This document shows positions 8,509 to 29,221 of a stretch of 37,267 bases of DNA, one piece after another. The translations under genes and the position numbers were made by a program. The stretch's first letter is position 1. Each line of letters opens with the position of its first letter. Under the pieces are notes generated by a model that worked only from the letters and a program-made list of their open reading frames with translations, made no database searches and had not been told where the DNA came from. Source of the DNA: an uncultured virus (IMG/VR IMGVR_UViG_3300043469_000509) (taxonomy: Duplodnaviria > Heunggongvirae > Uroviricota > Caudoviricetes > Crassvirales); IMG/VR virus record IMGVR_UViG_3300043469_000509; one strand, 5' to 3'.

Positions 8509-11500
8509 TGATACTTTAGATTTATCTAAAATAGATCCTAAACAATTAGATTACATATTAGCAGTACCTAATAGAAATCTAACATTATATAACATTGATA
8601 AATCTCAATATGATAGGGAGTTTATTATCCCTCAATCAGGCGATCCTTATGAGGCTTTAGGAGAATTTAGAGCTAATAACCAATCAGCTATTGACCAGCT
8701 AACTAATAGCGCATTAAAAGGAACTTTAATGGCGGGTACTACATTTGCAGATACTTTTGCAGGTAGTGCAGCAGGATTAGTTAATGTATTAGGTAAAAGT
8801 ATAGAATTAGCTACTGATGGAGTAGATACTGATAATGGTGATAATGCTAAACAAATATTTAATGCTTTTATTAATAACCCTGTTTCTATAGGTTTAAATG
8901 ATTTAAACGAAATAGTTAATAGCGATTACTTAGTTAATTATAGAACTAAGCAAGAAATGGATAACGAGTGGTATGAAAATTTAGGTACTGCTAATTTCTG
9001 GGGAGAGAGTATTTTAAAGAATGCTGGATTTATGGTAGGAGGCGCTGGAGCTAGTAAATTAATTGGTAGTGGATTATCTCGTATGGCTAGAATAGAACAA
9101 GCTAGACAAGAATACAAAACTATTCAAGATGCTACTAAAGCTGTTTTATCAGGTATAGATGTAGACCCTTCAGATGTAAAACTATTAATGTCTACAGTAA
9201 AAAACAATCCTGGTATATATGGACTAGAAGCTGAAAAGGTTATAAAAAATTTAGCTGAGGCTGCTAAGACTGTTAGAGTTAGAACAGTTGGTGTACAAGC
9301 TGCTACTGCTACCCTAGGATCTTTTGGTGAGGCTAGAGTAGAGGCTTTAGGTAATGGAAATCAATTTAAAACTGATTTAACTACTAAACTAGATATGGAA
9401 TTTAAAAATCCAGATGGTAGTTTTAAGTTAGGTAAGGATGAAGAACAATATGAACAAGCTTTAGATAAGATAGATAATGAAGTTATGTCTTATCAGAATA
9501 TATCATTTTTAGGAAATGCTTTAGCACTATCTGCAAGTAACTACGCTGGTTGGAGAGAAACTTATTTAAAGTCTTATGACTTTAATAAAAAGAATATGAT
9601 AGGTAGTTCAATGGGAAATGTTGCAGGAGGTTATAAATATACTTCTCCAACAGCATTTAAAGCTACTCTACAAAAGAGAGGTTTAGACATGTTAAGAGAA
9701 TCTCAAGAAGAGCAAATTCAATTTGTTATTGATAAGGGAACAGCTGAATATGTTAACTCTCTTTATAACGGAGGAGATGTTGCTGGTAGTTTATTGAAAG
9801 GTTTAAGTAAGGGATTTAGCGAAGCATATGGATCAGCTGAAGGTTGGGAAAATGCTTTTGCTGGAGGTTTATTTGGCTTTATGGGTGTACCTGGAATGAA
9901 CTCTATTTTTAGTGAGTACAAAGAAACTGGAGCTAGAATTAAAGAAGAGTCTAGTTTAGTAGATAAGTTAAATGCTGCTATTAAAGATGGTGGGTTAGAT
10001 AACTCTAAAGAAAATATTTTAACTAGAGCTTATGCTAGAGATTTAGGGCTAACTATTGATCAAACTGAATCTTTAAAAAATGAAGATAGAAAGTTATATG
10101 AAGATTTAAAGGATAAGAAGTTTTTTAATGTTGCTAATGCTTTTATTGAAGCTGGTAAATATGAAGACTTTATAGATTTAATAGAATCTGAATCAGATTT
10201 AGATATTTCTGAACTTAAAAAAAAGTATAGTATTCTTACTAAACCAGGAGATGAAAACTCAAGAACATCTTTATTTGAAAATTGGGAAGAAGCTGAAATT
10301 AGAGGTTACATAGCTAAACAGGCTGGTAAGGCTAAAACTGAGGTTAAAAAACTTAGGGAGTTAAAAGATAATTTAGATACACTATATCAAAATCAATCTG
10401 TAACTATAAGAAATAAAGAGGGTGAAGAAGTATCTTACATGCTAAAAAATATGCTTACTGAGTCTTTCTACATGGCTGAAAGAAGAGATAAGAGAATACA
10501 AGATGTAAGACAAGAGCTAACAAAAACTATGACAAGCTCTGATTTACCTTTAACTAAAGAAGCATTTGATTTATCTATGATAGATAATCTATATAATGCT
10601 TTGTCTGGTAATTTACTAGTTGTTAATCCTACACCTAGTGATATCTTAGAAGGTAAGATGGATTTAGATAAAGTAATTACTTCTTTAAATGATTACGTAA
10701 AAAGATTTAAAGCATCTACAAATGATTCTAAAGTTATAGGATTGATGCAAGATTATATTGATTTACTTAGTGAGAGGGCTATGAGTAATTTAACTTTAGC
10801 TCAAGTAAGTAAGAATGATTTTTCTGATTTAATAGCTTCTATTAAAAAACATAAAGCTAAGGCAGAAAAGTCTGTTGTTGAAAAACAAAAAGAAGAAGTT
10901 AATAAAGAACTTTCAGATACTGAAAAATTAAATATAGTTAAAGAGAGAGGTAAGGCTGCTGGCTATTCAAATGTAGATGGTGAAGGTAGACCTGGAAATT
11001 TCTTTACATTAAAAGATGCTGCTGGTAACATAAGAAGATATGAGATTGAGCCTTTAAATGTAGGAAAAGAAAAGAAGAAACTTCAAGATGAGAAAGAAGC
11101 TAAGTTAGCTGAGCTTAATGAAAATGATGAAGAGTTAATAAAACAAATTGAAGAAGAATATGAAGCTAAAGAATTAGAATTATTAACTTCTTCAAAGCAA
11201 GAGGCCGCTATTAAAGACTTTGAAACTGGTGAATATTTAAGAGATAAAAAAGGTAAATTAATAAAATTTGATAATGCTTTTGCAATACAAAATTTTGATA
11301 AGCTAGACTTTATTTCTAGAGAGCAGGGATTAAATATTAAACGTACAAGAATAGCTCAATTAGCTAACAGAAGAAAACTTGATGCTATTAGAGAATTAAC
11401 ATTAGAATTAAATTCTAAAATAGAAGAAGAGATTTCTAAACTTGAATCTTTAATAGCTGATAAAAAGAAGACTAGAAAAGAGATTGCAGAGTATAAAGAA

Positions 11501-14470
11501 TTAAAAGAATTATTACCCTCTATAAAAGATAAGGGTGAAGCTAATAAAATAATTAAGAAATTAGAACAGCAGCTAGGAGAACTAGAAGAAGGTATAGATA
11601 CAATAAATCTTTTAATAGACCAACTAGAAGCTCACAAACAAGATTTACTAGATTTAGCAGAAGAGATTAAAACATCTTTTGAAGAGGGTACAAATTTATC
11701 TTTTGAAAAATATATAAATAATTTAGATAATTTACAACTTTCAGCTCTTGAAAAAATATGGGCTAGAAATTTATCTAGGGATTTAGAAGAACTTTTAAAT
11801 GATAATGAAATACAATCTTCTTTAAATAGCTTACAACAACTTAAAAATAATACTTTAAATGAGATACAAGCTACTCAAGAAATTATAAATAATTTAAAAG
11901 AGTTAGTAGATAAATCTAATACTTTTAAAGAATGGATTTTATCTAGTAAGATAAAAGGATTACCTTCTTGGTTTGTAACTAAGTGGAGTGTAGGTAAAAA
12001 GACAGACCCTTTTCAGTTTAGTTCTAAAGTAGGAGATTTACAAGATATAAAAAGATTATACCAGTTTCAAAACGTAATGAATAAGTACGCTGAAAAATAT
12101 GGCTTATCTTCTAAAGAAACTTATAATGAATTTTTAAATGATTTAAAAAATTTAAAAGATGCTGAAAATATACGAAATGAAGATTTAAATAGGACTTATG
12201 ATGAGATTAGAAATCTAGAAAATGAGATACTTGTTAATAGTAGAGATTTAGAAAATTTAAAAAATAGGTTAGAAGATATTATTGAGTTAAAAGGATTTCT
12301 ACAGAATGAGTTAAAACTTAAAAACTTAAAAGATTCTATTAACCAATTAAAAATTAAGTATACTAATATTATTAATAGAGACAGTAAATACAATACTGTT
12401 GAACCTAATCAGGTAGCTTTTGAAGATGGGCAACCTAGTGAAGTTTATAATGAAGGTGATTACAAAGCTTTAAGCTTACCTTCTAGTGCTATGAGTTTAA
12501 CTCCTTTTTATACTACTAATAAAACTGTGGAACAAAATCCAGATGGTAGTACAAAATATAAAGATAATGGATTTCCTGAACTTAATCAGAATGAAGATGC
12601 TATTAGATGGAATAGATTTTTAGAAAGGACTTCTAATTTAGGAGCTAAAGATAGTAATTATAGACTACAAGCTTTTGTAAGAAATTTATTACCTGCAACT
12701 TCTAAATTAAGAATAGACGCTGAAAAAAGAATTTTAGAAGGTGGTGGAGTTTTATCTGATGATGATATAATTACTGCTGTTGTAAATTTATCTGGAGAAA
12801 TTATGACTGCTGATAAAGATGGTCTATTATCTAGAGAAGGTGGTTATATATACACTTTCTTACCATTAACTCATCACTTACTAGGAGTTAATAGTAAGGT
12901 TGCTGATAAGGGCTTATGGATGTACTGGAAAAAGTATGCTGGTGTAAAAATGCAGCACACTCTTACTTTAACTAAGATAGAACAAGATTCTACACATGAT
13001 GATGATTTAGTGGAATTTGGTAAAGGTAATCAAATAAAATTAAGTGTTGCTAAAAGAGAGATAAGAGAATTTGCAGCTAGACAACATGCTAAATTTATAA
13101 CTAATATTAAAGGAGCTATAGCAGAAGGTAAAAAAGTAATCTTACCTGTACAATCAGTTAGTAATGGTATTCTATTAAAAAGGAAAGCTGTTGAAGGAGA
13201 GCTTACTATGGACTCAGTAAGTAATGTATTACTTAACATGAGGGATTTAAATACTAATTCTGCAGAAGGGTTAAATAATGTAGAAGTACATGTTGTAGTA
13301 AAAACTGGAGATAATTATAGCATACCTAGAACATCTATAGTTATCCCTAATGCTAAAAAGGGAGCTGTTGTTGTTTATAATAAAGTTACTAAAGAATATT
13401 TTTACGCTAATCAAAGAAACATAAATGATACAGAAGTTGATTTAGTTTTACATTTATTAGAATTAGTAGCTAATAATCCAGAAAAAAACTTAAACTTAAA
13501 TTTAAATATAGGTAATAATAAAACTAATTTTTATAAAGATGGTAGTTTAACAAGACAAGAAGTTCCTATTTTTCAAAAATTTGGAGGGTTATCTATAATG
13601 AATAACTTAATTTTTTGGGGTAGTCCTAATAAAGGAACCCATAATAAACATACAATTTTTGTAGATAAGGGTAAAATTCATTACCCTAATCCTAATAATA
13701 ATTTTACTATGGAGTCTATACCTTTAACAAAGGTAAGAGATGTTAAAGTAAATGCTAATTTACAAGCTTACTTAAAAACTAAACGTCATAATGTAAACCA
13801 TAAAATGTTTGAAACTCAAGCTTGGTATATGCACCCTGTAATTAAGAATGGTAAGCTTGAGTGGGAAATGGTTGAAGGTGGTTATAAAGCATTCTTATTA
13901 AATGGGTCTAAGTCAATTAGCCCTGTGTTAATTAGTAATGCTGTTAATTCTAATACTAAAAATAATAACTTAAAATTGCTTTTTGCTTCTAAAAACGTTA
14001 TATTAGATATCAATCCTGAAACTGGTGTTCCTAAAATTGAAAATCAAATAAATAAAGAAGCTCCTAAACCAGATCCTACAGCAGCAGCAGCACAACAACA
14101 ACCTGCACCTGCAGCTCCTGCAGCAGCTGCTCAAGAAACGTCTCCAGCAACTATTGTACCTATGAGTGCAGAAGCTGCTTTAATAGAAGCCTCTTTAAGT
14201 AATGAGGATTTTTATGCAAGTTTAGCAGCAGAAGGACATGGTCAAGTAACTGATTTAGCTACTTCTTTATCAATTTTAAATCAAACTGGTAATACATCAA
14301 ATGATTTAGGAGAAACTCCTTTTGTAGAAGATTCAAATCTAGCTAGGGTAACGCCAGATAATGTAGTAGATGAAAACCAAAAAACTTGTAATACAGGAGG
14401 TAGTACACCTCCAAATACAGGAGGGATTAAAAAAAACCAAGATATACCTAAAAATAACAGCGAAGACTAA
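8480..14470 (+). CDS. Giant virion cargo/ejection protein with long coiled coil (gene upstream of the virion RNAP)
   Basis: 1996 aa. Gly/Ala-rich hydrophobic N-terminal segments, ESQEEQIQ motif, extended E/K/L heptad region and PAAP linker near the C-terminus. TAATG stop/start coupling to the RNAP gene. Confidence 0.65.
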   Translation: MDKTIQPENNDTLDLSKIDPKQLDYILAVPNRNLTLYNIDKSQYDREFIIPQSGDPYEALGEFRANNQSAIDQLTNSALKGTLMAGTTFADTFAGSAAGLVNVLGKSIELATDGVDTDNGDNAKQIFNAFINNPVSIGLNDLNEIVNSDYLVNYRTKQEMDNEWYENLGTANFWGESILKNAGFMVGGAGASKLIGSGLSRMARIEQARQEYKTIQDATKAVLSGIDVDPSDVKLLMSTVKNNPGIYGLEAEKVIKNLAEAAKTVRVRTVGVQAATATLGSFGEARVEALGNGNQFKTDLTTKLDMEFKNPDGSFKLGKDEEQYEQALDKIDNEVMSYQNISFLGNALALSASNYAGWRETYLKSYDFNKKNMIGSSMGNVAGGYKYTSPTAFKATLQKRGLDMLRESQEEQIQFVIDKGTAEYVNSLYNGGDVAGSLLKGLSKGFSEAYGSAEGWENAFAGGLFGFMGVPGMNSIFSEYKETGARIKEESSLVDKLNAAIKDGGLDNSKENILTRAYARDLGLTIDQTESLKNEDRKLYEDLKDKKFFNVANAFIEAGKYEDFIDLIESESDLDISELKKKYSILTKPGDENSRTSLFENWEEAEIRGYIAKQAGKAKTEVKKLRELKDNLDTLYQNQSVTIRNKEGEEVSYMLKNMLTESFYMAERRDKRIQDVRQELTKTMTSSDLPLTKEAFDLSMIDNLYNALSGNLLVVNPTPSDILEGKMDLDKVITSLNDYVKRFKASTNDSKVIGLMQDYIDLLSERAMSNLTLAQVSKNDFSDLIASIKKHKAKAEKSVVEKQKEEVNKELSDTEKLNIVKERGKAAGYSNVDGEGRPGNFFTLKDAAGNIRRYEIEPLNVGKEKKKLQDEKEAKLAELNENDEELIKQIEEEYEAKELELLTSSKQEAAIKDFETGEYLRDKKGKLIKFDNAFAIQNFDKLDFISREQGLNIKRTRIAQLANRRKLDAIRELTLELNSKIEEEISKLESLIADKKKTRKEIAEYKELKELLPSIKDKGEANKIIKKLEQQLGELEEGIDTINLLIDQLEAHKQDLLDLAEEIKTSFEEGTNLSFEKYINNLDNLQLSALEKIWARNLSRDLEELLNDNEIQSSLNSLQQLKNNTLNEIQATQEIINNLKELVDKSNTFKEWILSSKIKGLPSWFVTKWSVGKKTDPFQFSSKVGDLQDIKRLYQFQNVMNKYAEKYGLSSKETYNEFLNDLKNLKDAENIRNEDLNRTYDEIRNLENEILVNSRDLENLKNRLEDIIELKGFLQNELKLKNLKDSINQLKIKYTNIINRDSKYNTVEPNQVAFEDGQPSEVYNEGDYKALSLPSSAMSLTPFYTTNKTVEQNPDGSTKYKDNGFPELNQNEDAIRWNRFLERTSNLGAKDSNYRLQAFVRNLLPATSKLRIDAEKRILEGGGVLSDDDIITAVVNLSGEIMTADKDGLLSREGGYIYTFLPLTHHLLGVNSKVADKGLWMYWKKYAGVKMQHTLTLTKIEQDSTHDDDLVEFGKGNQIKLSVAKREIREFAARQHAKFITNIKGAIAEGKKVILPVQSVSNGILLKRKAVEGELTMDSVSNVLLNMRDLNTNSAEGLNNVEVHVVVKTGDNYSIPRTSIVIPNAKKGAVVVYNKVTKEYFYANQRNINDTEVDLVLHLLELVANNPEKNLNLNLNIGNNKTNFYKDGSLTRQEVPIFQKFGGLSIMNNLIFWGSPNKGTHNKHTIFVDKGKIHYPNPNNNFTMESIPLTKVRDVKVNANLQAYLKTKRHNVNHKMFETQAWYMHPVIKNGKLEWEMVEGGYKAFLLNGSKSISPVLISNAVNSNTKNNNLKLLFASKNVILDINPETGVPKIENQINKEAPKPDPTAAAAQQQPAPAAPAAAAQETSPATIVPMSAEAALIEASLSNEDFYASLAAEGHGQVTDLATSLSILNQTGNTSNDLGETPFVEDSNLARVTPDNVVDENQKTCNTGGSTPPNTGGIKKNQDIPKNNSED

Positions 14471-17400
14471 TGAGTGTAATATGTCCTAGAGTAAATACTT
14501 CTGAATGGAAGTCCTTAGAAAGAAAGTATGGTTATGACTATGCTTGGAAACTATATATGTATAACAATAGTAATATACCTTCTTTAGAAGAGGCTAAATT
14601 ATTAAAAGTTAAACATGAAAAAGTATTGTCCAAATTTATATTTGAAGGGGTTGAATTAACATCTTTAGAAAAAACTGATTTCCTAAATTCTTTAAAATAT
14701 TTCTTTGTAAAAAACTTAATAAATAACTTTGATACTATTCAAGATATTGAAAATATTTTAGAAGACATTTTAGATAGTAAGTCTATTATGAATGTCTATG
14801 ATAAGGCTCTTGAAAATATCATTGATGCTTATTCTGAAAAGGCTGATCCAAGATTAACAAATATTTTAATGGCTGTTATTAAAGATCATCCTACTAATTT
14901 TTTAAGAGAGGCTTATCAAATTGCAGAGGAAGATTCTTATAAAGCTGGTTTAATTTACAACCAGTTTAAAAAAGAGTTATCTAATATTGTTAAATTTGTT
15001 AAATCTAACGATGAGGACCCTGATACTAAGAAAACAGAAGCTGTTACTGAAACTACTAAAGATAGTTATGGTAAGGAATCTATAGAGCAAAATAGAAAAG
15101 ATACTTTCTCAAGAGGTATTAAGATACTATTATCAGGAGTTCCTGAATATGCTAAAGATGGAAGTTACGCAAGAAATAGTTTAGGCATGCTTCAACCTGT
15201 TAATGCTAATAAAGTTAATAATGAGTTACTAAATTTATTTGCTAATACTCCAGCTACAGCTCAAGATTTTTTAGAAAAACTTTATTCTGAGGCTGATACT
15301 AACCCTACAATTAATTGGGTGTATGAAAAAGTATTTAGTAGTTTAAGTACTAATCCTAAAACTGGTGAATTAGAATTAACTAATTCTAATATTTCTGAGT
15401 TACCTAGGTTTAATATGATAATTAAATTTATCCAGTCTTTTGCTAATCATAAATATAAATTAGATGCTGCTATTGTTAGTAAAACTAAAGAGGGTACTTC
15501 TATTAAGATACAAGATGCTGATACTAATAAGTTAACTAATAGAATATTAAAAGAGTGGAAAACTAATATTGAGAAAGCTTTAGATAGTGGTGTTGTAGTA
15601 GGATCACGTAAGATTATCTTTAACAATGATGTTAATGCTTTTGTAAATTTTCTAAATGCTCAAGATGAATCTTTAGAGGACAAGCTAGCTGTATTAGGAT
15701 TACCTCAAGTTAATGAAAAGCTAATAGATGAATATAGTGCTAGTAATACTTTAAATATACTAAGCAATAATTTAAGTTTTATACAAACATTTTTTGATTT
15801 AACAGGATTAATAAAAGAGTCTGTTAAAACAATTCCTGGTAATAAAGGATTACTAGAGATGTTTGAACCTCTTAGTAAGAACACTAAGCTGCATGCTTAT
15901 ACTGTAGGGCTACTTGAATTTACACTACCTTTTAGAAAGGACTATGATAATCAACAGTTTAATACTGATGGTAATTTAATGAGTACTATTAACTTAAATA
16001 GTTTTCAAACATTACTTTTAAATAGATTAAATAATGCTGTAGATAAAGCTAGACAAAAGTTTCCTAATGATAGTGTTTATAATAATTTTGAAAATATTTA
16101 CGAAGAGCTAAACAAAGAAGTTCCTGAAGCATTAAATCAATGGTCTTCAGATTCTAAATTTATGCAAAGAGTCTTATCAGGAGAGAAGTTAGAAATTAAA
16201 CTTCTTGATGGTATGGTTGCAAAAGGAGGAGATGGTAAAAGTACTTCAGCTTTAGTACAAACTGATTTATGGGGTATGTTTATTAATAGCTCATTAAATA
16301 ATGTATTTCCTGCTATTAAACACGGTGATAGAAGTATGTTCTATGGCTACAAGTTTGGGTTTGGAGGTTCTGATATATTAAGTACTGCTGGATATATGCC
16401 AGATAGTAATTGGAAGAATAGATTTACAGATATACTTTTTGATTACTTAGATACTGAAATACAACGCATTAAAATTTTTAGAAGCGGGGCTACTGAAACT
16501 GCTGATATACAAAACATTAATAAGTTAGGTAAAGAGTTTATTTTGTTTTCTGAGATATTGGATACATTTAATTCTAATAAATTACATAGAAATAAAATAG
16601 ATTCTTTAATTACTAATTATACTAATATCCAAGATTTAAAAGAAGATAAATTTATAGCTAGTCTTATTAATAAATGGGCTGGTAATTACTTTAATGAAAG
16701 TATAGCACAAGCTAAGAATTCAGGTATAGGAGAGCTAGGTAATGGTATTGATGTTAATATATCAAATAAACTTTATAATGCGTTAGAGTACTCACAAAGA
16801 GGCTTAAAAAAAGATCAAGCTTTCTATGATGAAGTTATTAGTTTAGCTGCTGCTAAATTTTTTATAGGAGCTGTAGAACAAACTAAACTATTTACAGGCG
16901 ACCCAGCTCTTTACCAAATTAAAGGGTTTGAAAAAAACTTAGAAGCTTTAGAAAGTAAATCTAAAGAAAGTATATTAATATATGATTTTATAAAAAGAAT
17001 TACTATGCAATCATCTACTAAGATGGTTGCTGTTGTAGATACTGTAACTAATAACTTTTTAAATAATCTAGCTGCTGAAGAAGATTTTAAATTTTCTATA
17101 AATGGAGGCCCTAAACAAAGTTATAATAAAAACTTTGATGGTACTATTAGAGAGCTAGTTATTAATGACCCTAAAACAGTTAGTAAGTTAAAAGAAGAGT
17201 TGGCTTTAATTTTTAAAGACAATCCTGAAGCATTAGCAGCTTATACTGAGAATGGGTTTGATGAAACAGATGGCTTTAGTATAGGTAATATATTCTTTGC
17301 ATTAGAAGGTATATTTAGAACAGAAGGAATTCACTCTGCTAGATTAGAAACTGTTAAAAGGGAATTAAAGTTTTTATCTGGTACTCAAGAAGAACTAGAT

Positions 17401-20400
17401 ACTCTTTATACTGTCCCTAAAGGAGAAAACCCTGAGAAATATTTTAGCCAAACAGTGAGACCATTTACTCAACAAAAGTTTCAATATGTTGGCCCTAACT
17501 ATATGAAGGATAGAAACTCTTATATAGAAGATGGTAAAAAAGGTAATTGGAGAAACAGAGTAGGTATTACAGCAGGTAGAAAAACATCTTATGGATACTT
17601 AATGCCAAGTGTTGTTAAAGGCACTGTCCTAGAGCAATTAAATAACTTTATGTTAGAAAATGCTGTAGATGTTATGCACTTTGGTTCTGCTGCTAAATTT
17701 GGTTCTGGTAAGACTAGGGATTTTTATAAAGTTAGAGAAGAAAATGGAGTTAAAATTACTGAAGGATTTAATGATTCTCCAATATTAAGCAATGAGTTAG
17801 GATTTTTAGATTTTAGGTATATGGGTAAACAGCAAGAAATTGCTTATGAAACTAAAAATAAAGTTAGTGATAGTACCCAAGCTAGGAAGATTAATCTTAG
17901 TGGTATAATGGAAGATGGTGTACCTATTGATTATGCTGGTACAAATGAAGAGTGGGATAAATTATCTGAACAAGAAAAGCTATCTAACTCAGAATTATTT
18001 AGATTCATTACTAGATATGATCAAATTTATAATGAGCTAATTCAAGAATTTATCTCAGAGCTACAAGCTGGTTATGAGTTATCTAATACTTTTAATATTA
18101 CTAACCCATTAAAGTTTGTTAATTTAATTAGAAAACAAGCTGAAGATAGAGTATCTCCTGATAATATAATAGAAGCTATTATTGATTGGGCTAAAGATGA
18201 TTCTAATTTAAAGTATATAGAAAGTTTAGCTAACTACCAAAAGATACAATATGTATTAACTAGTATAATAACTAATAATCTTTTAATATTAAAAAGACCT
18301 GGAACAATGTTTCCTCAATCTCCAAGTACTGGATATGAGTCTACAGATTCTTTTAGAACTTTTAGTGGTGAAAATTTAGAAAGTAATGACGCTTTAAAAT
18401 TCTATACTTTTGACAAAGATGAAGATGGAAATATAATTAAAGTTAATCCAGCTGAAATAATGATACCCTTACCTCTAGATAAGGTTGAGGGATTATTTAA
18501 TTACTACGATGGTAAATCTATATTAATAAATGGAGAGGTTTATAAAAAACCTAATGCTGAAAGAAACATTAATAAGTTATTAGATATTATAAATAATCAA
18601 ATAGCTGAAGGTAATTTACAACACCAATATCTAATTAAAGGATTACGTATTCCTAATCAACAGCTTAGTTCTAATGATGTATTTAAAGTTAAAAAATTCT
18701 TAAACCCTATTTATAACCAGACTATTATAGTACCTAATGAGATACTAGTTAAAAATGGTTCGGATTTTGACATTGATAAGGAAAGTTTATACTTCCCTAT
18801 TTTAGATGATGAGATGAAAGCTAAAGACTCTGATAAAATGTCATCTGTAGAAAAACTACATAGTGAATTATTAGATTTAGAAATTAAACTTTTATTACAC
18901 CCTAAAAGAGTTAGTAGATTACTTATGCCTGTAACTGAAGGCTATTTAAAAACTATTGCTAAAAAAGCTCAAATAGCAAATATAAAAAATGTAAATAAAC
19001 AACCTACACATTTATTTGCTTTAGGAAGTTTAGTAGAAGGTACTTTAGATTATGTAGGTGGTAAGCAAGGTGTAGGGGTTGTAGCTACTTGGATTACTTT
19101 TCAAAAACTAGCTGAAAGATATAATATAGTTTTAAAAACTTCACGTACTAATAGTAAGGGGGATTATATACCTGTAACTTTAGACAATAGGTATTTAGAT
19201 GGTAAAGATGTTATTGTTAATGATAACTTTATTAGTTTTGGTAAAACTGTTAATCGTAATATTATTAATGAGAAACAAGATAGCGGTCAATCTAGAGAAA
19301 TCTTATTAGAAGAACAAATAGAAGATGTTTTATCTAATCTTATTACAAGTCAAGTAGATATTGTTAAAGATAAGTGGGCTTCAGAAATTAATATTAGATT
19401 AAATACTTTAAATTTAGTATGCTATCTTGTAATGAGAGGCTGTTCTACTAAAAGTATTGTAGACTTTATTAATAATCCAGCAATAAAACAATTTAATGAG
19501 ATTAAGGAGATTAACAAAGCTATGTCTATTGATTCTCCTTACCCTAAAGATAATAAAGGTATAATTCAATTTATAGCTGGTAAACAACCTAATTATATAA
19601 GTAGTATATTAGAAGAATATATTAAAGTAACTGATGAAGCTGGGCAAGTAAAAAACTTAAAAGATTTTTTATCTGCTGATACAAAGTATTTAAAAAGTCC
19701 TGAAGAAGTTTGGGAAGTTGATAACACTCTTTGGAGAATGTTAAATAGTTCTGAAAGTATATTTGATTCTAACCAATTAAATGAGCTTAGATATAATACA
19801 TTATTATCTAGTTTTATACAATCTAGAAGTTTAATTAATACTATATTTGACCCTTTATACTTAACTAGAAATAGTTTAAATAAAGATTTAATTGAAAAGC
19901 AATCTATATTAACTAATAAAGGCTTTGATCATATACATAAAGATACTACTAAGAAAGCTGCTATAAAAATTTATAATGAGCATTTTATTAACTTCCTATT
20001 ACAAAACCAATTAAAAAGTGTAATTGAGTCTAAGTATGAGAATTTAATGAAAGGTCCGAATAGTATGGCTAGAAGAATATCTAGAGCTAAAGATAACCCT
20101 AGGTTTGCTAATAACTATTTAATACAAAACTTAATATCTATTATAGATAATAAATTAGGTAATAGTACAGAGCAAGTTATAGATAATGTTAAACTATTCT
20201 TAACTAAAACTACTACTACTGAAACTAATAACTTATCTAATAACTTTGAAGAGATTGAGAGTATAGATAAAGCGTTATATGAAGACTTAATTTACTTTAA
20301 TTTATTTCAAGCTGGTATAAGTAATAGTCCTTATCAATTAAGTAAAATACTTTCTCATAAGGGTCAGAAATTAGTTTTAGATGCTTTAAATAATGAAGGT

Positions 20401-21480
20401 GTACAAAACTTAATTAATGATAATAACTTAGCTATTTTTTATGAGAAGTTCTTTCTAAATAATGGTAAGTATAATGAACTAGATAAAAATTGGAGTAAGT
20501 ATAGAGATGAAAATTCTTTTTATTCTGAGCCTGATTTTGCAGATGCTTATGAAGACTATGAAGACTACGAAGACCCTTTTGATTATCCTAGTAGTGAGTT
20601 TAGTCCTAAAGAAGATAGATATAAGCATAAATTATTTAAAAAAGGTTATGACTCACAAGGGTTATTAAAGTTATCAACTAAGGAAGGTAATATTATAACC
20701 CCTGCTGGTGGAGTTAATGGTATTAATTACATTGTAACTAAATATGACACTCCTAATGAAGATATATTAGAGTTAATACAAAGTTATGAAATTGTTAATT
20801 TAGAGCCTACTCAATCTGTTACTAGTGAATCTACTACTCAACGTAAAACATATTCTGGTAAAGTAACAAGTTTGCAATCTAATCAAATATTTGTATTTGG
20901 TTCTAATGAAGGGAATTCTAAGGGGGCTAAACCCACACATGGTGCAGGTAGTGCAAAGATTGCTAGAGAAAAATTTGGCGCAATACAAGGTCAAAGTAGA
21001 GGTCTGCAAGGGCAATCTTATGGCATTGTTACTAAGAAGTTTTACGATGTAGAAAAATCAAGTACTCCAGAAGAAATTACAAAAGAGATTCAAAGTTTAT
21101 ATGAGTATGCTAAACAAAATCCAACTAAAGAATTTTTAGTATCTGATTATTCTGAAAGCAATCTTAATGGTTATACTGGACAACAAATGGCAGATATGTT
21201 TAATGCTGCTGGATCTATACCATCTAATATAGTATTTAATGAGAATTTTGATAAGTTAATACCTGCTCAATCACAAGCTACTACATCTACTGAAGATGAA
21301 AAAGCTGATATTTTTTATAACCTTGAAGAGTTCACAATTGAGCAAAAAGTTGTTATATTAGATAAGATGTTAGCTAAAGGTGATGCCCTATCTGAAGAAG
21401 ATGCTTTAGATCAATTAAACCAAATGTTAGCAACTGATAAAGAGTTTGCTACTGAATATATAAAATCTTGTTTATCTTAA
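14470..21480 (+). CDS. Virion-packaged two-barrel DNA-dependent RNA polymerase (crAss-like, phi14:2 gp66 type)
   Basis: 2336 aa. LRIPNQ (18643-18660) followed by GSDFDIDK with catalytic DxDxD at 18763-18777. ETDG motif. Size and context match crAss-like virion RNAPs. Confidence 0.9.
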   Translation: MSVICPRVNTSEWKSLERKYGYDYAWKLYMYNNSNIPSLEEAKLLKVKHEKVLSKFIFEGVELTSLEKTDFLNSLKYFFVKNLINNFDTIQDIENILEDILDSKSIMNVYDKALENIIDAYSEKADPRLTNILMAVIKDHPTNFLREAYQIAEEDSYKAGLIYNQFKKELSNIVKFVKSNDEDPDTKKTEAVTETTKDSYGKESIEQNRKDTFSRGIKILLSGVPEYAKDGSYARNSLGMLQPVNANKVNNELLNLFANTPATAQDFLEKLYSEADTNPTINWVYEKVFSSLSTNPKTGELELTNSNISELPRFNMIIKFIQSFANHKYKLDAAIVSKTKEGTSIKIQDADTNKLTNRILKEWKTNIEKALDSGVVVGSRKIIFNNDVNAFVNFLNAQDESLEDKLAVLGLPQVNEKLIDEYSASNTLNILSNNLSFIQTFFDLTGLIKESVKTIPGNKGLLEMFEPLSKNTKLHAYTVGLLEFTLPFRKDYDNQQFNTDGNLMSTINLNSFQTLLLNRLNNAVDKARQKFPNDSVYNNFENIYEELNKEVPEALNQWSSDSKFMQRVLSGEKLEIKLLDGMVAKGGDGKSTSALVQTDLWGMFINSSLNNVFPAIKHGDRSMFYGYKFGFGGSDILSTAGYMPDSNWKNRFTDILFDYLDTEIQRIKIFRSGATETADIQNINKLGKEFILFSEILDTFNSNKLHRNKIDSLITNYTNIQDLKEDKFIASLINKWAGNYFNESIAQAKNSGIGELGNGIDVNISNKLYNALEYSQRGLKKDQAFYDEVISLAAAKFFIGAVEQTKLFTGDPALYQIKGFEKNLEALESKSKESILIYDFIKRITMQSSTKMVAVVDTVTNNFLNNLAAEEDFKFSINGGPKQSYNKNFDGTIRELVINDPKTVSKLKEELALIFKDNPEALAAYTENGFDETDGFSIGNIFFALEGIFRTEGIHSARLETVKRELKFLSGTQEELDTLYTVPKGENPEKYFSQTVRPFTQQKFQYVGPNYMKDRNSYIEDGKKGNWRNRVGITAGRKTSYGYLMPSVVKGTVLEQLNNFMLENAVDVMHFGSAAKFGSGKTRDFYKVREENGVKITEGFNDSPILSNELGFLDFRYMGKQQEIAYETKNKVSDSTQARKINLSGIMEDGVPIDYAGTNEEWDKLSEQEKLSNSELFRFITRYDQIYNELIQEFISELQAGYELSNTFNITNPLKFVNLIRKQAEDRVSPDNIIEAIIDWAKDDSNLKYIESLANYQKIQYVLTSIITNNLLILKRPGTMFPQSPSTGYESTDSFRTFSGENLESNDALKFYTFDKDEDGNIIKVNPAEIMIPLPLDKVEGLFNYYDGKSILINGEVYKKPNAERNINKLLDIINNQIAEGNLQHQYLIKGLRIPNQQLSSNDVFKVKKFLNPIYNQTIIVPNEILVKNGSDFDIDKESLYFPILDDEMKAKDSDKMSSVEKLHSELLDLEIKLLLHPKRVSRLLMPVTEGYLKTIAKKAQIANIKNVNKQPTHLFALGSLVEGTLDYVGGKQGVGVVATWITFQKLAERYNIVLKTSRTNSKGDYIPVTLDNRYLDGKDVIVNDNFISFGKTVNRNIINEKQDSGQSREILLEEQIEDVLSNLITSQVDIVKDKWASEINIRLNTLNLVCYLVMRGCSTKSIVDFINNPAIKQFNEIKEINKAMSIDSPYPKDNKGIIQFIAGKQPNYISSILEEYIKVTDEAGQVKNLKDFLSADTKYLKSPEEVWEVDNTLWRMLNSSESIFDSNQLNELRYNTLLSSFIQSRSLINTIFDPLYLTRNSLNKDLIEKQSILTNKGFDHIHKDTTKKAAIKIYNEHFINFLLQNQLKSVIESKYENLMKGPNSMARRISRAKDNPRFANNYLIQNLISIIDNKLGNSTEQVIDNVKLFLTKTTTTETNNLSNNFEEIESIDKALYEDLIYFNLFQAGISNSPYQLSKILSHKGQKLVLDALNNEGVQNLINDNNLAIFYEKFFLNNGKYNELDKNWSKYRDENSFYSEPDFADAYEDYEDYEDPFDYPSSEFSPKEDRYKHKLFKKGYDSQGLLKLSTKEGNIITPAGGVNGINYIVTKYDTPNEDILELIQSYEIVNLEPTQSVTSESTTQRKTYSGKVTSLQSNQIFVFGSNEGNSKGAKPTHGAGSAKIAREKFGAIQGQSRGLQGQSYGIVTKKFYDVEKSSTPEEITKEIQSLYEYAKQNPTKEFLVSDYSESNLNGYTGQQMADMFNAAGSIPSNIVFNENFDKLIPAQSQATTSTEDEKADIFYNLEEFTIEQKVVILDKMLAKGDALSEEDALDQLNQMLATDKEFATEYIKSCLS

Positions 21481-21491
21481 AATAAAATAAA

Positions 21492-21902
21492 ATGTTACCT
21501 AAATTAAAAGGAAGTCAAATGGAACCTAGCGGATCAACTAAAATGGCTGTACAAGCTATATCACAATGCTTATTTGAAGCTGAAATTCAAATGCATATAG
21601 TACATCTACAAGCAAGAGATAAATCATTTGCAATGCATGAGGCACTTGGTGCATTCTACTCATCATTAGCTGATTTAAATGATGATTTAGTAGAGAAAAG
21701 TTTTGTTAAAACTGGTCTTATGTTAAACTATTCATCAATGATGATTACTAATAATGTAGAACCTATCTCTTATATTAAGAAAGAGATGGCTAAGATTGAA
21801 GCTATGAGAGCTAAAGTTACTGAAGGATATATAGAGCAGATGATTGATAATATATTAGAACAATTTGCTCACGTAATTTATAAATTAGAGAACTTACACT
21901 AA
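21492..21902 (+). CDS. Ferritin/Dps-like protein (DUF5856-like)
   Basis: 136 aa, helical. HIVHLQ..SFAMHEALGAFY..L..LND.LVE pattern and C-terminal IYKL, as in phage Dps-like proteins. Confidence 0.7.
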   Translation: MLPKLKGSQMEPSGSTKMAVQAISQCLFEAEIQMHIVHLQARDKSFAMHEALGAFYSSLADLNDDLVEKSFVKTGLMLNYSSMMITNNVEPISYIKKEMAKIEAMRAKVTEGYIEQMIDNILEQFAHVIYKLENLH

Positions 21903-24721
21903 TGGATGTATTTTGTATAAATACTAATAATCCTGAATTTCAAAAGTTATTAGCTGAGAGTGGAATGAAGCAAGGTGTATTTGCTATGGCAATCTCTAAA
22001 TGGATGACTGAATCTGGAATACACAATAGATACCCGACTTTACAAGAGTTGGGTATTACTACTGCAGAGAGTGTTAAGCCAGGAGTAGAAGGATTATTTG
22101 AATCTAATCCTGAGTTAGCTAGTGCTGTTTATGACGCTACAATACCAAATAGATTATCAGAAGTTTATAAACTAACAAATACACCTATAGGAGATCCTGT
22201 AAGTCAAACAGAAGGAACTGGATTATGTGATGGTACTTGTGGTATAATGGCTTATAGATTAAAAGAACAAGGTATGCCTTACGGTACTACACAAATAGAT
22301 GATAAGTATGCTAATTATCATGCTATAGCATTAACTGAAATAGATGGTAAAAGATTTATTTTAAATCAACCTCAATTAGAGTTTATAAGCAGAAGTTATC
22401 AAAAAGCCCCTGTTTGGGAAAGGGCTCAATATTGGAGAGGTGATGATGTTAGAATGAATAGACACTTAGAGGAATTAAATAAATTTATCTATGGTATGGA
22501 AATGCCGCTTTTTAATTTTTTTACTGGTAAATCTTTTGAATCTGATTATGGAACAATCCAACCAGTTTTTAAAGATATTACTAAAATAGAAAGAATTGAA
22601 GATATAAAAAATTATGACGGGAAAATAGAAAAACGTACAATTGTTCATCAAACAGCTAAATTGATATCAAATCCTAAAGTATCTGTAAAATGGGCATATG
22701 ATAAAGAATTTCCTAGCGAGGAAGCATTAACTGAGTTTTCGTCTACTTTAGATGGTGAAGAAATATTAGCTTGGACTAATGATGTAATGAAGCCAAGATT
22801 AATCGAGGCTACAGAAGAAAATTTAATTCAAGAGTATAAACTTACTAAAGAACAGGCAAAAGAAAGCATTAAGAAAATTAATTCTGCTAAAATAGAAAAA
22901 GGGAGTGAAGATAATAAACGTATAACCTCAGAACAAGCTAAACAGGCTCAACAATTATATTCTCAATATCTTGAGCAAGGTGGAACTCAACAAGATATAA
23001 AAGGATTTAAAGAGTTTCTAGATAAACCAGCTACGAGTGAAGAAGTTGCTAAGGAAGCTGTTGATGTAATGCAAAAAAGCATACAAAAATTAGAAAAAGA
23101 CGGTATGGTAGATAATAATAGAAAGATACTAAAACCTATTGATTTTAATGCTTATAATAATAAACTTACTAATCATGCTAGAAATAAATACGGAGTTACT
23201 GGAGAAGGTATGTTATTTAAGATTGTTGATTCTAAATCAAGCTTACCTTATGATAGATTAATAGGTTATAATAAAAGTACTTTTTATGATGTAAATAATG
23301 AGTTATTTAAAGAGCTTCAAGAAAAATATGATGCTTATCATAGTTCTGAAGGTAAAAGTGGCTATTATCAATTAAAAGATTCTACTAATTTAAAACAAGC
23401 TGATAAAGACCTAGATAATTATTTATTAGACTTTTTAAAACCTTTTGGTGTAAAATCTCAAGAAGTAGAAGAATTAAAAACTAGATTAGGTAAAGATGCT
23501 CTAGCTTTAACAGATGTTTTAAATAAAGTTATATACCATGTAAATTCAGATAAACTGAATGCATTATCAATTCCTGAAGAGGCTTCACATATGATAGTAA
23601 TGTTAATGGGTAAACATAATCCGTTAATTAAAGATTTACTAGACAACATACATAAATGGGAGAAATATGAGAGTATTAAAAAATTATATTTACCTGAGTA
23701 TCAAAATTTAGCTCAAGTTAAGATTGAGGCAGTAGGTCAGTTACTTTCTGAAGCTTTAGTTAGAAATAATTTAAAACCTGCTGCAAAGTCTATGTTTAAA
23801 ACTATTATAGATAACATTTCTAAATGGTTAAAAGAAAAATTTTCTAAATTTCAATCACAATTATTTATAGCTGATAAAATAGCTGTAGAAGTATTAAATG
23901 GTAATGCAGACTTTATAGGTAATTTAAAACCTGCTTATCCTAAAGTAGATTTTGAAAAAGCTTTAAATGGTAATCCTTTAGCTAAGAAATTAGTTACAGA
24001 ATTTGCATCAGAATTAAAATTACCTTTAGTAGGTAGTTTAGCTATTGCTGGACAAAATGAGGCTATATATAGATCAGAAAAAGAGCCTGTGCATGACTTA
24101 GATTTTTTACAAGATGGCAGAAAATCTAGTCTTAATAATAAAGTAACTAGAAAATTAAAAGAGTTAAAGGCTGTAGAAGCTCATAAAGGGTGGCCATCTC
24201 CTGATGGTACTTATACTTGTTTTACATACTTTATTCCTGCAGAAGGCTATGAAATAATACCTACAAATATAAATAAAAATAATTGGGTAACTGAATTTGA
24301 GATACACAAAAATGGTAAATTATTTGTCAGTTTAAAATACTATTGGGTAAAAGATGGTAAAGGTAAATTAACAAGAACTTTATTAACATCTTATGAAAAT
24401 CCTCTAGATGTAACAACTGATTTATCACAAGTTTATATGCCTACAGATTTCTTCTTTTATCCTAAAGGGTATTCTGATAAACCAAGTGCTAATAATATGG
24501 CGCATTGGACATCTATTTATAATGGTAAAATGCTATTATCTCCAGAAAGTAGAAAAGAAAGAATGTTTGATAGACCTAAAGATCAAAATGATTACTTATT
24601 ATTAAATCCTGAAGATAGGAGTAGAAAACCTACTGAAGCTTTTATGTATTATCAAATTAGTGATGATGCTGTTATAGAAGAATTAATACAAGAAGGAACG
24701 TTAAAAACAAAATGTGAATAA
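21902..24721 (+). CDS. Polyvalent virion protein: papain/transglutaminase-like domain, degenerate zincin and Pol-beta-type nucleotidyltransferase-like domain
   Basis: GLCDGTC (Cys 22226) ... YHAIAL (His 22319) ... FILNQP. PEEASH (23573-23590) with later EAVGQLL. LVGSLA (GS 24032) ... HDLDF (DxD 24095-24103) ... RPKDQND. Confidence 0.6.
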   Translation: MDVFCINTNNPEFQKLLAESGMKQGVFAMAISKWMTESGIHNRYPTLQELGITTAESVKPGVEGLFESNPELASAVYDATIPNRLSEVYKLTNTPIGDPVSQTEGTGLCDGTCGIMAYRLKEQGMPYGTTQIDDKYANYHAIALTEIDGKRFILNQPQLEFISRSYQKAPVWERAQYWRGDDVRMNRHLEELNKFIYGMEMPLFNFFTGKSFESDYGTIQPVFKDITKIERIEDIKNYDGKIEKRTIVHQTAKLISNPKVSVKWAYDKEFPSEEALTEFSSTLDGEEILAWTNDVMKPRLIEATEENLIQEYKLTKEQAKESIKKINSAKIEKGSEDNKRITSEQAKQAQQLYSQYLEQGGTQQDIKGFKEFLDKPATSEEVAKEAVDVMQKSIQKLEKDGMVDNNRKILKPIDFNAYNNKLTNHARNKYGVTGEGMLFKIVDSKSSLPYDRLIGYNKSTFYDVNNELFKELQEKYDAYHSSEGKSGYYQLKDSTNLKQADKDLDNYLLDFLKPFGVKSQEVEELKTRLGKDALALTDVLNKVIYHVNSDKLNALSIPEEASHMIVMLMGKHNPLIKDLLDNIHKWEKYESIKKLYLPEYQNLAQVKIEAVGQLLSEALVRNNLKPAAKSMFKTIIDNISKWLKEKFSKFQSQLFIADKIAVEVLNGNADFIGNLKPAYPKVDFEKALNGNPLAKKLVTEFASELKLPLVGSLAIAGQNEAIYRSEKEPVHDLDFLQDGRKSSLNNKVTRKLKELKAVEAHKGWPSPDGTYTCFTYFIPAEGYEIIPTNINKNNWVTEFEIHKNGKLFVSLKYYWVKDGKGKLTRTLLTSYENPLDVTTDLSQVYMPTDFFFYPKGYSDKPSANNMAHWTSIYNGKMLLSPESRKERMFDRPKDQNDYLLLNPEDRSRKPTEAFMYYQISDDAVIEELIQEGTLKTKCE

Positions 24722-24738
24722 GTTAAATTTTTAAAATA

Positions 24739-27700
24739 ATGAGTTGTAAGATAGACCCTAAAGAATTTCCAATAGGTACAGTTAGAGATTTAGTTAATTC
24801 TAAAAAGCTAAGTACTTTTAAAGCTTCATCTGAAGATACCTTTGAGAGTATTAATAATAAAGTAAAGATATTTCAAAATATAGTTACAAGTGAATTAGTA
24901 GATAATACTAAATTAGTTAAAGGTTATCATTTAGATCCTAGCGGTAAAACTTCTAGGTATGTGTGGGTAGATAATAAAAACTTAGCTTTTGCTGGTAGGG
25001 TTACTGATGCTAATTCAGCAAGATTTAAAAGGCGTAAAGGTTTTAAAGCTGCTGCTGAGTTAAGTAATTTACCTGATAATGAGAGAAAAAGAATGTTAGG
25101 TACTAAAGTTCATAAAGCTTTACAAGATTTAACTTATTATTATATGAAGTTAAAGCCTGCTATGTTAGCCAATGATTTAAGTACTATACCTGATGTTAAA
25201 CTTAGTGATATACAGTCAGAATTAGGATTAACTGATTCAGAATTTGCAGGGTTACAAAGTGGGTTTCTTGAAATTTTTAAACTAATTAAAGATACCCAAA
25301 CTAAAATTGATCCTAATGGTAAGGTTAGTATTAATCCTGAAAGTTTTATTCCTGATGTATTAACTGCTGCTAAAGGTGGTACAACAGATTTATTTGTACT
25401 TTACTCAGATAAGACAGGCTCTCTATTTGACTACAAAACTATGTCTGGTATGGTAGGGCAAGATGGTAAGTTAGCTGATGCTAGTTGGATACCTGACTAT
25501 AAAATGGAAGAATTTAATTTACAATTACCTACTCTTGTAGAGATGTATAAGAATATAGGTGTAAAAGAATTTAGACATGTTAGAGTAGTTCCTATTTTGA
25601 TTAAACTAAAAAATAAAGCTAAGAATGATACTACTAAAGTTAAAGGTAATACTTTAACTGATACTATACAAATGATAAAGATGGGTAAAGAGGCTGATAA
25701 GTATTTAAGCCACATACCTATTACTATCGAAGATACTGGTAATAAATCTTTAAATAAATCAATTAACGAAGCTTTAAAGCTTAGACATAACTTGACTAAA
25801 AGGCTAGGTAAGTATTCTGATGATAGTGCTGAATATATTAGTTTAATGAGTAGAATACGTAATCTTACAGCTAGTATTAACTCTATTATGCTAGATAAGG
25901 ATATTAGAAGTACTTTTAAACAATATAGAAGTATTGTAGATAGATACTTAGCAGATAATAATGTTCTTAGAGAGGGGACTTTGTTAAAAGATAGTCCTTT
26001 GTTTTTAACTAATCAAAAAATAGAAGCCTTATTAGCAGATATAGATATTTTTGAGTCTATAGCTGCCAGTACTCCTGAATTTATTGACAGTTTAAAAGTT
26101 GATGATGAAGAAGTAAACAAAGAAAAGTATTTAAATACTTTAACTATTTTAGTAGGCAGAACTTCTATGTTACGTAAAGCTTTACAAGAAAGGTTAATTA
26201 CTTTAAACTTGTCTACAGATGAAGTTCAAGCAATGTTAAATGATAAAAACTTAACTTTTTTTGATAGATATCTAAGAAGGTTTAGTAATATTCAAAATAC
26301 TATTTTCCAAAAAGTTAGGAATTTAATAGATACTGCTAACAATCGTTCTAGACTAAGCCTACAAGAATTTACAAGCCAGCTAAAAAAAATAGACGGGCGG
26401 GTACAAACTTGGGGAGAGTCTAAAGGCTTATCAGGATTTAAAGTTTATGAAGTTTTTATAAATAAACAAACAGGTAATTTACATACTAAATTTAAAAAAG
26501 AGTTATATGAAAAATTAAAATTAGCTCGTAAAGAACGTGATTTTAAGACTTTAAATAAGTATGTAAAACTAAAAGATGATGCTTCTGTAACTTATCAAAA
26601 TAAAAGACAAGAATATATAATTAAACATTCATTAGTTGGAGATGCTTTAACTACTGATACAGACTTCCTAGCTTGGGAAAGGGCTAATAATCCTGAGTTA
26701 AGTACTAGTGAAGTTAAATATGCTAACTATTGGTATTTATATTATGACATAAATGAGTCAGCTATTGAAGATGAGCTTTATAATGCTGATTTTCTAACTA
26801 TAAAAAATACTCCTGAGTTATTAGAATACTATAAGTTTTGGACTTCTAATATGGAGAAATTTAGGAAGTATTTAGATTTAAGTGGGGATAGATTACCAAA
26901 ACAATTTGTACCTTGGATTAAAGCTTCTATTGTTGAGCAATATTTAGCTAATAATATTAGCTTTTCAATGGAAAGTTTTAAAAACTTACTTGGTCTAAAC
27001 GAGAATAATGATCTTACTTTTAGTGATAGTTATCAAGAAATTAGAACAGAAATTGATGTTGATACAGGTAAACCTAAATTAGAGATACCTAAATATTTTA
27101 TTAACCCTCTTGTTAATAATCAAGGAGAAGTAGATAATACTTTAAAGTCATTTGATTTAAGTTCTAGTTTAACAATATTTGCTGGAATGGCTTTTAATTA
27201 TAACAACTTAAAAGAAACTGAGAATACTGTTGAAGCACTAAAAGAGATATTAGCTATTAAAGGAGTTGTACAAACTACAGCTGATGGTGATATTGTTAGT
27301 TTAGCAGGGCAGCCTGAAAGAGAAAAAAGTAAGAGATCTAAAGAATACGAACTACTTGAAACTTTAACTAACTTTCATTTATATGGAGCATTTTATAAAG
27401 AAGCTCCAGGTAAAGCAATGACAGCCTTATTAAAGCTAAAGAAGTATCAACAATTAAAAGAGCTAGCTTTATCTCCAATAGCTTCTGCAGTGAACTTAAT
27501 GGGTGCTAGAAGTAATGCTGCTTTTGAAGGTGTTAAAGGATACTTTTATACAAGAGAAATGTGGGTTAAATCTTTACAAGACAGGTTTAAAGATAAAGAA
27601 AAATACTTTGCTTTAGCTCATTTCTTACAGCCTTATCAAGGTAAGAATGTTAAAGATCTTGCTAAAAATGTTTCTATACATAAAGGTATTACTAGTAAAG

Positions 27701-28905: not shown

Positions 28906-28913
28906 ATAGAAAT

Positions 28914-28946
28914 AAAAAGGAGAGGCTGTTAGACCTCTCCTTTTTT
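28914..28946. terminator. Bidirectional intrinsic terminator between convergent gene blocks
   Basis: AAAAA-GGAGAGG-ctgttaga-CCTCTCC-TTTTTT, giving U-tracts on both strands. Lies between the stop at 28905 (+) and the stop at 28949 (-). Confidence 0.9.
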
Positions 28947-28948
28947 AT

Positions 28949-29188: not shown

Positions 29189-29221
29189 TATTATTTAATT
29201 AAAATTTATTAATATTTTTAT

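Follow-up and report, generated by a model that had tools for sequence, protein, structure and literature searches.

The 37,267-nucleotide stretch of DNA analysed here (the window; IMG/VR record IMGVR_UViG_3300043469_000509, an uncultured virus of the Crassvirales) encodes on its plus strand four very large proteins, which we consider here as a possible chain of virion cargo joined through cysteines at the protein ends. In gene order, these are a gp47-like cargo protein of 1996 amino acids (aa; 8480-14470), a virion RNA polymerase of the gp50 / phi14:2 gp66 type (2336 aa; 14470-21480), a 939-aa protein that would act as an extra link (21902-24721), and a gp49-like protein (1388 aa; 24739-28905). 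A 136-aa DUF5856 gene that is not a member of the chain (21492-21902, plus strand; PF19174, phrog_858) is interposed between the second and the third. By BLASTP, the 1996-, 2336-, and 1388-aa proteins matched crAss001 gp47 (E = 2e-36), gp50 (E = 9e-10), and gp49 (E = 2e-5), and the polymerase carries an SDFDID catalytic motif at S1431-D1436 (18760-18777, plus strand), of which S1431, D1432, D1434, and D1436 are invariant in a six-polymerase alignment (A2) that includes crAss001 gp50 and phi14:2 gp66. Further upstream, a 602-aa protein (3946-5754, plus strand) was identified as a homologue of cargo protein 1 by the Pfam family crAss_CARG1 (PF25725; E = 4.9e-9, 36.8 bits for a cut-off of 27) and by BLASTP to crAss001 gp45 (E = 2e-6). 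With the DFDxD motif, the gp47 and gp49 homologues, and crAss_CARG1 all present, the window contains a Crassvirales virion RNA-polymerase cargo module, and the crAss001 pairings together with the SDFDID motif identify it as a divergent crAss-like phage. When the polymerase was searched by tblastn in 50,697 phage records, no place covered at least 80% of the query, the best GenBank phage match being cr4_1 (24% identity over 16%), and the polymerase had no sequence match in the PDB. The 1996-, 939-, and 1388-aa proteins returned nothing from Pfam or PHROGs, as did four sub-pieces at E <= 1, and no HExxH motif was found. Homologues have been detected by mass spectrometry in virions of crAss001 (gp47, gp50, and gp49; PMC10172136) and of phi14:2 (g067, g066, and g065; bioRxiv 10.1101/2020.03.07.982082), and by this homology the window proteins are probably also carried in the virion and ejected.

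The few cysteines of these four proteins are strongly skewed towards the protein ends. The 1996-aa protein has none at its head and a single one, C1970 (TGT, 14387-14389, plus strand), 26 residues before its C-terminus and followed by a 26-residue low-complexity extension. The polymerase contains C5 (14482-14484, in an MSVIC start), C1651, C1658, and C2334 (21469-21471, at -2 from the end in the terminus KSCLS*), and the 939-aa protein contains C5 (21914-21916), C109, C113, C773, and C938 (24713-24715, at -1 from the end in the terminus KTKCE*), both proteins having a cysteine at either end. The 1388-aa protein has no tail cysteine, its sole cysteine being C3 (24745-24747). The head cysteine of each downstream protein lies at position 3-5 (C5, C5, and C3), and the tail cysteines C2334 and C938 lie within a few residues of the C-terminus, C1970 being a relaxed case shared by the whole clade. 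Uniform placement would put at least 5 of the 11 cysteines within the first 8 or last 13 residues with a probability of 1.4e-7. Zero cysteines occur in the four upstream plus-strand proteins (1309, 602, 622, and 182 aa; 2715 residues), among which the 602-aa cargo protein, being outside the chain, provides an internal control, and the minus-strand replication genes contain 0-2.7% cysteine. The initial annotation, made from the letters of the window alone, had named these codons and reading frames, including the internal cysteine counts, and had seen no cysteine in the upstream cargo proteins; all were recovered where it had placed them. Its further proposal, that a tail cysteine only in the first protein, both in the middle two, and a head cysteine only in the last amount to the topology of a linear chain, is strongly backed by the comparative data presented below. 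Its description of this chain as collinear with gene order held up in part. It applies to the window apart from the interposed 136-aa gene, whose sole cysteine (C26) is internal and which means that gene adjacency and chain order are not identical, and it fails in crAss001 and DAC15, where the first chain member, a tail-only gene, is on the strand opposite to that of its presumed partner.

The strongest argument against chance is that relatives conserve the pattern. Three IMG/VR relatives (L001-L003), whose polymerases are about 44% identical, keep every terminal cysteine, with polymerases that start MTC.. and end in ..KSCLT* or ..MINC*, link proteins that start MAxFC.. and end in ..KCE*, and last proteins that start MSC... 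All six terminal positions are kept in the four nearest IMG/VR relatives that have the four-gene form (L001, L002, L003, and L058) and in L059, including both end cysteines of each of these five homologues of the 939-aa protein. The C1970 column aligned in 6 of 6 clade members within a motif like E-x-C-K-x-G, 17-77 residues before the ends, with a low-complexity extension of that length following the cysteine in all six. Alignment A2 has about 100 invariant columns, which include polymerase C5 and C2334, and M1, S2, and C3 are invariant in an alignment of the 1388-aa family (A1). Beyond this clade, crAss001 gp47 (2341 aa) has its sole cysteine at -2, gp49 (1349 aa) has only C5, and gp50 has C5, one internal cysteine, and one at -8. 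In phi14:2, g067 ends in a cysteine, g066 (the crystallised polymerase, 2180 aa) has only C3 and C2179, and g065 has only C3, and DAC15 displays the same terminal pattern as crAss001 and phi14:2. The crAss001 and phi14:2 proteins are homologous to those of the window and share both the SDFDxD motif and the terminal cysteines, but the window's clade differs from them in having the 939-aa protein as a fourth link and an extension after the first tail cysteine. An 820-aa open reading frame (ORF) of L003 that lacks a head cysteine (17747-20209) proved to be an exception in appearance only, as an in-frame deletion has fused the DUF5856 gene with that of the link protein, whose MAVFC head persists intact from residue 105 of the joined ORF. 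As a separate observation, polymerase C1651 and C1658 (19420-19443) belong to an internal pair spaced by 6-7 residues that is conserved in the clade (C1761/C1769, C1778/C1786, and C1773/C1781 in L001-L003) and absent from phi14:2 g066, and that could act as a small metal site or form a disulfide within the protein.

A broader survey was based on a profile search from alignment A2, which yielded 80 diverse IMG/VR loci and, with the window, L001-L003, and phi14:2, a set of 85 loci (67 clusters after collapse); the 52 loci of a locus search with crAss001 gp49 alone (L006-L057), mostly 97-99% near-identical contigs, enter no count. Junctions were defined as neighbouring plus-strand ORFs of at least 450 aa, with the last 13 residues as tail zone and the first 8 as head zone. 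A tail and a head cysteine were both present at 89 of 123 junctions and both absent at 24, leaving 2 tail-only and 8 head-only cases (Fisher p = 1.4e-16). Junctions with neither mostly involve the cysteine-free cargo genes upstream, and in 7 of the 8 head-only cases the upstream cysteine lies 17-77 residues from the end. The two tail-only junctions are accounted for by the L003 deletion and by L101 (13927-21719), in which three cysteine-rich genes (781, 500, and 440 aa) were inserted between a polymerase with a tail cysteine and a gene with a head cysteine. At the 89 concordant junctions, the head cysteine occupies position 3-5 in 83 (positions 2-7 of the primary translation overall) and the tail cysteine is followed by 0-3 residues in 79 and by 0-8 in all 89, with lysine frequent around it. 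Among 64 dereplicated IMG/VR chains, cysteine accounted for 90 of 976 head-zone residues (9.2%) and 87 of 1885 tail-zone residues (4.6%) versus 90 of 342,675 inner residues (0.026%), where about 0.75 terminal-zone cysteines would be expected by chance, and 86 of 115 complete chain proteins had no cysteine outside the end zones. Other genes of the same loci contained 1.57% cysteine, with a head cysteine in 5 of 77 and a tail cysteine in 9 of 77. Both the terminal enrichment of cysteine in proteins of the polymerase locus and its co-occurrence across neighbouring ends, which the initial annotation had put forward for checking, were therefore found. The pattern is also polar: first members lacked a head cysteine in 32 of 34 cases, both exceptions being at a contig end with the upstream gene cut, and last members lacked a tail cysteine in 53 of 57, the other 4 having a cysteine at most 80 residues from the end. 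Two further candidate exceptions were set aside, namely L103, which is a frameshifted copy of L102, and L119, whose extra head cysteine belongs to an unrelated cysteine-rich ORF. Eight TAG-recoded gut loci among the 80 (L109, L110, L114, L115, L120, L121, L128, and L135) have no long ORF under code 11, their giant genes containing 23-58 in-frame TAG codons each; with TAG read through, the genes are open and the tail/head pair is kept.

The same modules occur as separate or fused polypeptides depending on the lineage, and the cysteines follow. The polymerase motif lay about 1350-1770 residues from the N-terminus of the ORF in 23 representatives, which have a separate gp47-like gene, and about 2080-2850 residues in 8 representatives, in which the break lies further upstream and the pair is present. 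In 19 representatives the spacing was at least 2900 residues, the gp47-like part and the polymerase being fully fused into ORFs of 3,974-4,789 aa or more with no cysteine pair at the equivalent place. Ten of these 19 fused ORFs have a single cysteine, the tail one, as in L065, where a 4686-aa ORF has one cysteine at 4685 and the next protein (1672 aa) starts MAC. Residues 490-740 of the 939-aa protein form a module that L133 and L090 carry at the C-terminal end of their polymerase ORF, and L092, L105, L060, and L096 at the N-terminal end of long gp49-like proteins. The 1388-aa protein corresponds to the C-terminal 1100-1300 residues in these same long proteins. On a polymerase-core tree (FastTree, 63 rows, with local supports only), at least 6 architecture changes are needed. 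As read from these sequences, the modules keep a fixed order while the positions of the breaks shift, and every break has a tail cysteine on one side and a head cysteine on the other, the sole exception being L090 (3804-16804), which is split without a cysteine pair across a 243-base gap, is nested in a fused clade, and may represent a recent break or a sequencing error. A fusion removes exactly one tail and one head cysteine, which fits a linear chain and misfits both head-to-tail closure within one protein and pairing with a third party. Overall, the comparison shows that a conserved, polar, and pairwise code of end cysteines tracks the polypeptide breaks across the order.

The ends that would meet at one of these joints are also conserved beyond the cysteines themselves. 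Within the clade of the window, the polymerase ends in a tail domain of 75 residues that includes C2334 (21253-21477, plus strand) and has a mean column identity of 67% versus 38% for the last 215, and the first 90 residues of the 939-aa protein, its head domain (21902-22171, plus strand), have 70% versus 36% for the first 250; both are conservation islands. The initial annotation had suggested co-folding each tail with the head that follows, and one such pair, the polymerase tail and the 939-aa head, gave an interaction prediction score from aligned errors (ipSAE) of 0.49 (0.53, 0.48, and 0.49 in individual runs), against 0.00 for the best of three controls. The runs agreed in at least 91% of contacts, with a predicted local distance difference test (pLDDT) value of at least 61 for the partner. 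When the tool was calibrated, 116 of 157 solved complexes passed the mark, as did 2 of 215 mismatches, and scores of 0.60 or below came from only 18 of those 157 complexes and from both of the passing mismatches. The co-fold thus lends weak support to docking of the polymerase onto the 939-aa protein.

A structural precedent for such a joint exists in the cyanopodophage A4, in which the C-terminal helix of gp27 is inserted into gp26 and fixed by a Cys1715-Cys5 disulfide seen by cryogenic electron microscopy (cryo-EM; PMC12002296). In the A-4L record, gp27 (1717 aa) has Cys 1715 as its sole cysteine, gp26 (1114 aa) has Cys 5 as its sole cysteine, and the genes are adjacent with gp27 first, so that here too the upstream protein has its only cysteine 2 residues before the end and the next protein has its only one at position 5. 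A4 differs in having one link only, with no RNA polymerase in the pair, and is a 41.7-kb phage of another family, the Saffermanviridae; the available text of PMC12002296 does not frame the link as a general rule tied to gene splitting. Comparison of A4 gp26 and gp27 with the window and crAss001 proteins gave no BLASTP match at E < 0.1 and no phmmer match at E <= 0.01, and we therefore regard A4 as an analogue and not a relative.

Taken together, the conserved pattern of terminal cysteines suggests that disulfides tie the four proteins end to end into one injection thread. We place at roughly 0.6 the probability that the joints are covalently linked in virions, that is, that the particle contains a head-to-tail covalent chain of 6659 residues and about 756 kDa whose joints are most likely disulfides, the nature of the bond being drawn by analogy with the gp27-gp26 link of A4. 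The chain would run from the 1996-aa protein through the RNA polymerase and the 939-aa protein to the 1388-aa protein, each joint consisting of a cysteine in the C-terminal region of one protein bonded to a cysteine at position 3-5 of the next. In the mechanism that we propose, the short conserved end domains would dock first and the cysteine pair would then lock them. Because they are joined at their extreme ends, the proteins would remain in a nearly linear arrangement that could pass unfolded through the portal and tail channel, each drawing the following one in behind it, and the host's reducing cytoplasm would then free the polymerase and its partners for early transcription. The near-absence of other cysteines (0.026%) would avert wrong cross-links. 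In evolutionary terms, a peptide bond and a terminal cysteine pair would be interchangeable joiners of the same modules, giving a "virtual polyprotein" whose modules occur in the same order as 1, 2, 3, or 4 polypeptides depending on the lineage, with cysteine pairs bridging the breaks. That ordered threading and reductive release are the function for which the cysteines were selected is a tentative proposal that we consider less likely than not, and so is the wider suggestion that crassviruses and some cyanophages carry their cargo as a redox-cleavable "virtual polyprotein" that is ejected in order and cleaved in the cytoplasm to free the RNA polymerase.

Several points weigh against a disulfide-linked chain. 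Disulfides form poorly in the cytoplasm, and gut crassviruses inhabit an anoxic environment. In 4 related complete genomes we detected no thioredoxin gene, and a search of the same genomes for an Erv1/ALR thiol oxidase carries no weight, as its control matched nothing anywhere. The first tail cysteine of the window is 26 residues from the end, compared with 0-8 in 89 of 89 concordant junctions, and this joint would therefore carry a side branch. Further cysteines are present in the polymerase (2) and the 939-aa protein (3), and a TAG-recoded gut lineage has 7-10 internal cysteines per protein. Two cysteines could also share a metal ion. The co-fold passed weakly, was based on 5-row alignments, and gave neither contacts nor cysteine distances, and the A4 proteins have no detectable sequence homology to the chain proteins. 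Finally, gp47, gp49, and gp50 have no resolved density in the crAss001 atlas (PMC10172136). The crassvirus chain is thus supported by comparison across loci and by one weak co-fold, and the bond in particles is a prediction.

Among alternative explanations, the one that survives best, although we consider it improbable, is that the terminal cysteine pairs are docking sites held non-covalently or bridged by a shared Zn, Cu, or Fe ion, with no disulfide and no redox release. Such sites would agree with comparative data that reveal pairing and not chemistry, with conserved end domains that co-fold weakly without any bond being modelled, with the anoxic gut habitat of many crassviruses, and with the failure to find a phage thioredoxin in the 4 complete genomes mentioned above. 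Two thiols, however, make a poor stand-alone metal site, no additional conserved histidine or cysteine stands beside them within the end motifs, the cryo-EM map of A4 reveals a disulfide at this signature (PMC12002296), and crAss001 particles do contain disulfides (PMC10172136). Less probable again, each terminal cysteine might bond elsewhere, for instance to another copy of the same protein, to the portal or capsid interior, or to other cargo, producing homodimers or a network. Each protein is believed to be packaged in multiple copies (for crAss001, the proposed number is about 6), and which thiol meets which is not readable from sequence alone. This arrangement would nevertheless leave unexplained why cysteines are jointly present or absent at junctions (10 of 123 being discordant), why first members lack a head cysteine and last members a tail cysteine, and why exactly one of each is lost on fusion, and the window's upstream cargo and muzzle-like proteins are cysteine-free and offer nothing to pair with. 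Lastly, it is very unlikely that the end cysteines are unrelated to linkage and represent processing, modification, or targeting marks such as lipidation, prenyl-type tags, or protease sites, or a by-product of coupled stop/start junctions: fixed distances such as those of the 83 heads and 79 tails above are typical of terminal modification motifs, but the lipoprotein signal peptide and lipobox do not precede the head cysteines (positions 2-7, mostly 3-5), the fixed three-residue box of CaaX-type motifs is incompatible with a variable tail spacing of 0-8 residues, such marks should also be found at the N-terminus of the first member and the C-terminus of the last, where they are absent, and a signal at the nucleotide level of the junction is impossible with partner genes on opposite strands (crAss001 and DAC15) or separated by inserted genes (L101 and the window).

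For the end-to-end chain of cargo proteins that we favour, we found no prior description regarding crassviruses in the literature searched, which did not cover subscription-only papers and included phi14:2 through its preprint. The initial annotation's statement that no such arrangement was known therefore stands for crassvirus cargo and not for phages at large, one such link having been published for A4. The word "cysteine" occurs 0 times in the main texts of PMC10172136 and bioRxiv 10.1101/2020.03.07.982082, and a supplement of PMC10172136 contains no mention of gp47, gp49, gp50, disulfide, or reduced. The disulfides described for crAss001 are in the tail, where they are stabilising, and in gp57, and passage of its cargo through the portal and tail in an unfolded state has been proposed (PMC10172136). 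Fused "polyprotein" forms are mentioned in the phi14:2 preprint (bioRxiv 10.1101/2020.03.07.982082). A multi-link chain that includes the virion polymerase, and a cysteine pair that takes the place of a peptide bond as genes split and fuse, seem to be new.

Two further phages help to place this proposal. The N4 virion RNA polymerase, gp50, is a single polypeptide of ~3,500 residues ejected as "beads on a string", and the authors of that work ask how three crassvirus proteins relate to its parts (PMC13434306). N4 resembles the crassvirus system in packing a giant RNA polymerase, in ejecting it through a short tail, and in ordering N-terminal, catalytic, and C-terminal parts in one thread, but its parts are joined by peptide bonds, and "disulfide" and "cysteine" occur 0 times in the text of PMC13434306. 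The crassvirus thread would be the equivalent of N4's single 3,500-residue polymerase chain. The second phage, Lbo-JY46 (L140, 1723-14629), is a 125-kb Leptolyngbya cyanophage not classified in the Crassvirales that encodes homologues of the gp47-like N-terminal and gp49-like C-terminal parts. The sole cysteine of its 1552-aa protein is the last residue, that of the next protein (2748 aa) is at position 4, and no SD[FY]DxD polymerase motif was seen in either of them.

Crassviruses are the most abundant human gut phages, and at stake is how they package nearly a megadalton of protein and deliver it into the host, with the polymerase that initiates infection among it. The cargo proteins concerned were left structurally undefined by the crAss001 atlas (PMC10172136) and by the recent N4 work (PMC13434306). 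A sequence rule of the kind proposed here would tell which end meets which, predict the order of the cargo thread, explain why these huge proteins are almost cysteine-free, and join split and fused gene forms into one functional unit. As the cyanophages A4 and Lbo-JY46 display it too, the rule may also be useful for annotating ejected proteins of uncultured phages.

Other features of the window touch the chain less directly. The run of large genes also encodes two cysteine-free proteins of 1309 aa (10-3939) and 622 aa (5783-7651), on either side of the 602-aa cargo protein, and inside the cargo block lies an N-acetylmuramoyl-L-alanine amidase gene (182 aa; 7960-8508; PF01510, E = 4e-15), all on the plus strand. 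The amidase gene, likewise cysteine-free, shares 29 bases with the start of the 1996-aa gene, and its product may be a virion-borne wall hydrolase. The interposed DUF5856 gene resembles a "starvation-inducible regulator", and its C26 is conserved in L001-L003. Residues 2127-2267 of the polymerase (20848-21270) match phrog_2072 (E = 2e-25), a domain that, alone or in other contexts, was found by tblastn in 217 records of many unrelated phages, including Vibrio, Pseudomonas, Erwinia, and Sphingomonas PAU phages, some of these matches adjoining genes annotated as macro domains. From ~29 kb, the minus strand encodes the replication genes, with PhoH, ribonucleotide reductase, and polymerase exonuclease recognized through Pfam and PHROGs, and the strand switch between cargo and replication genes (~28900-29300) coincides with a reversal of the GC skew from about +0.2 to -0.23.

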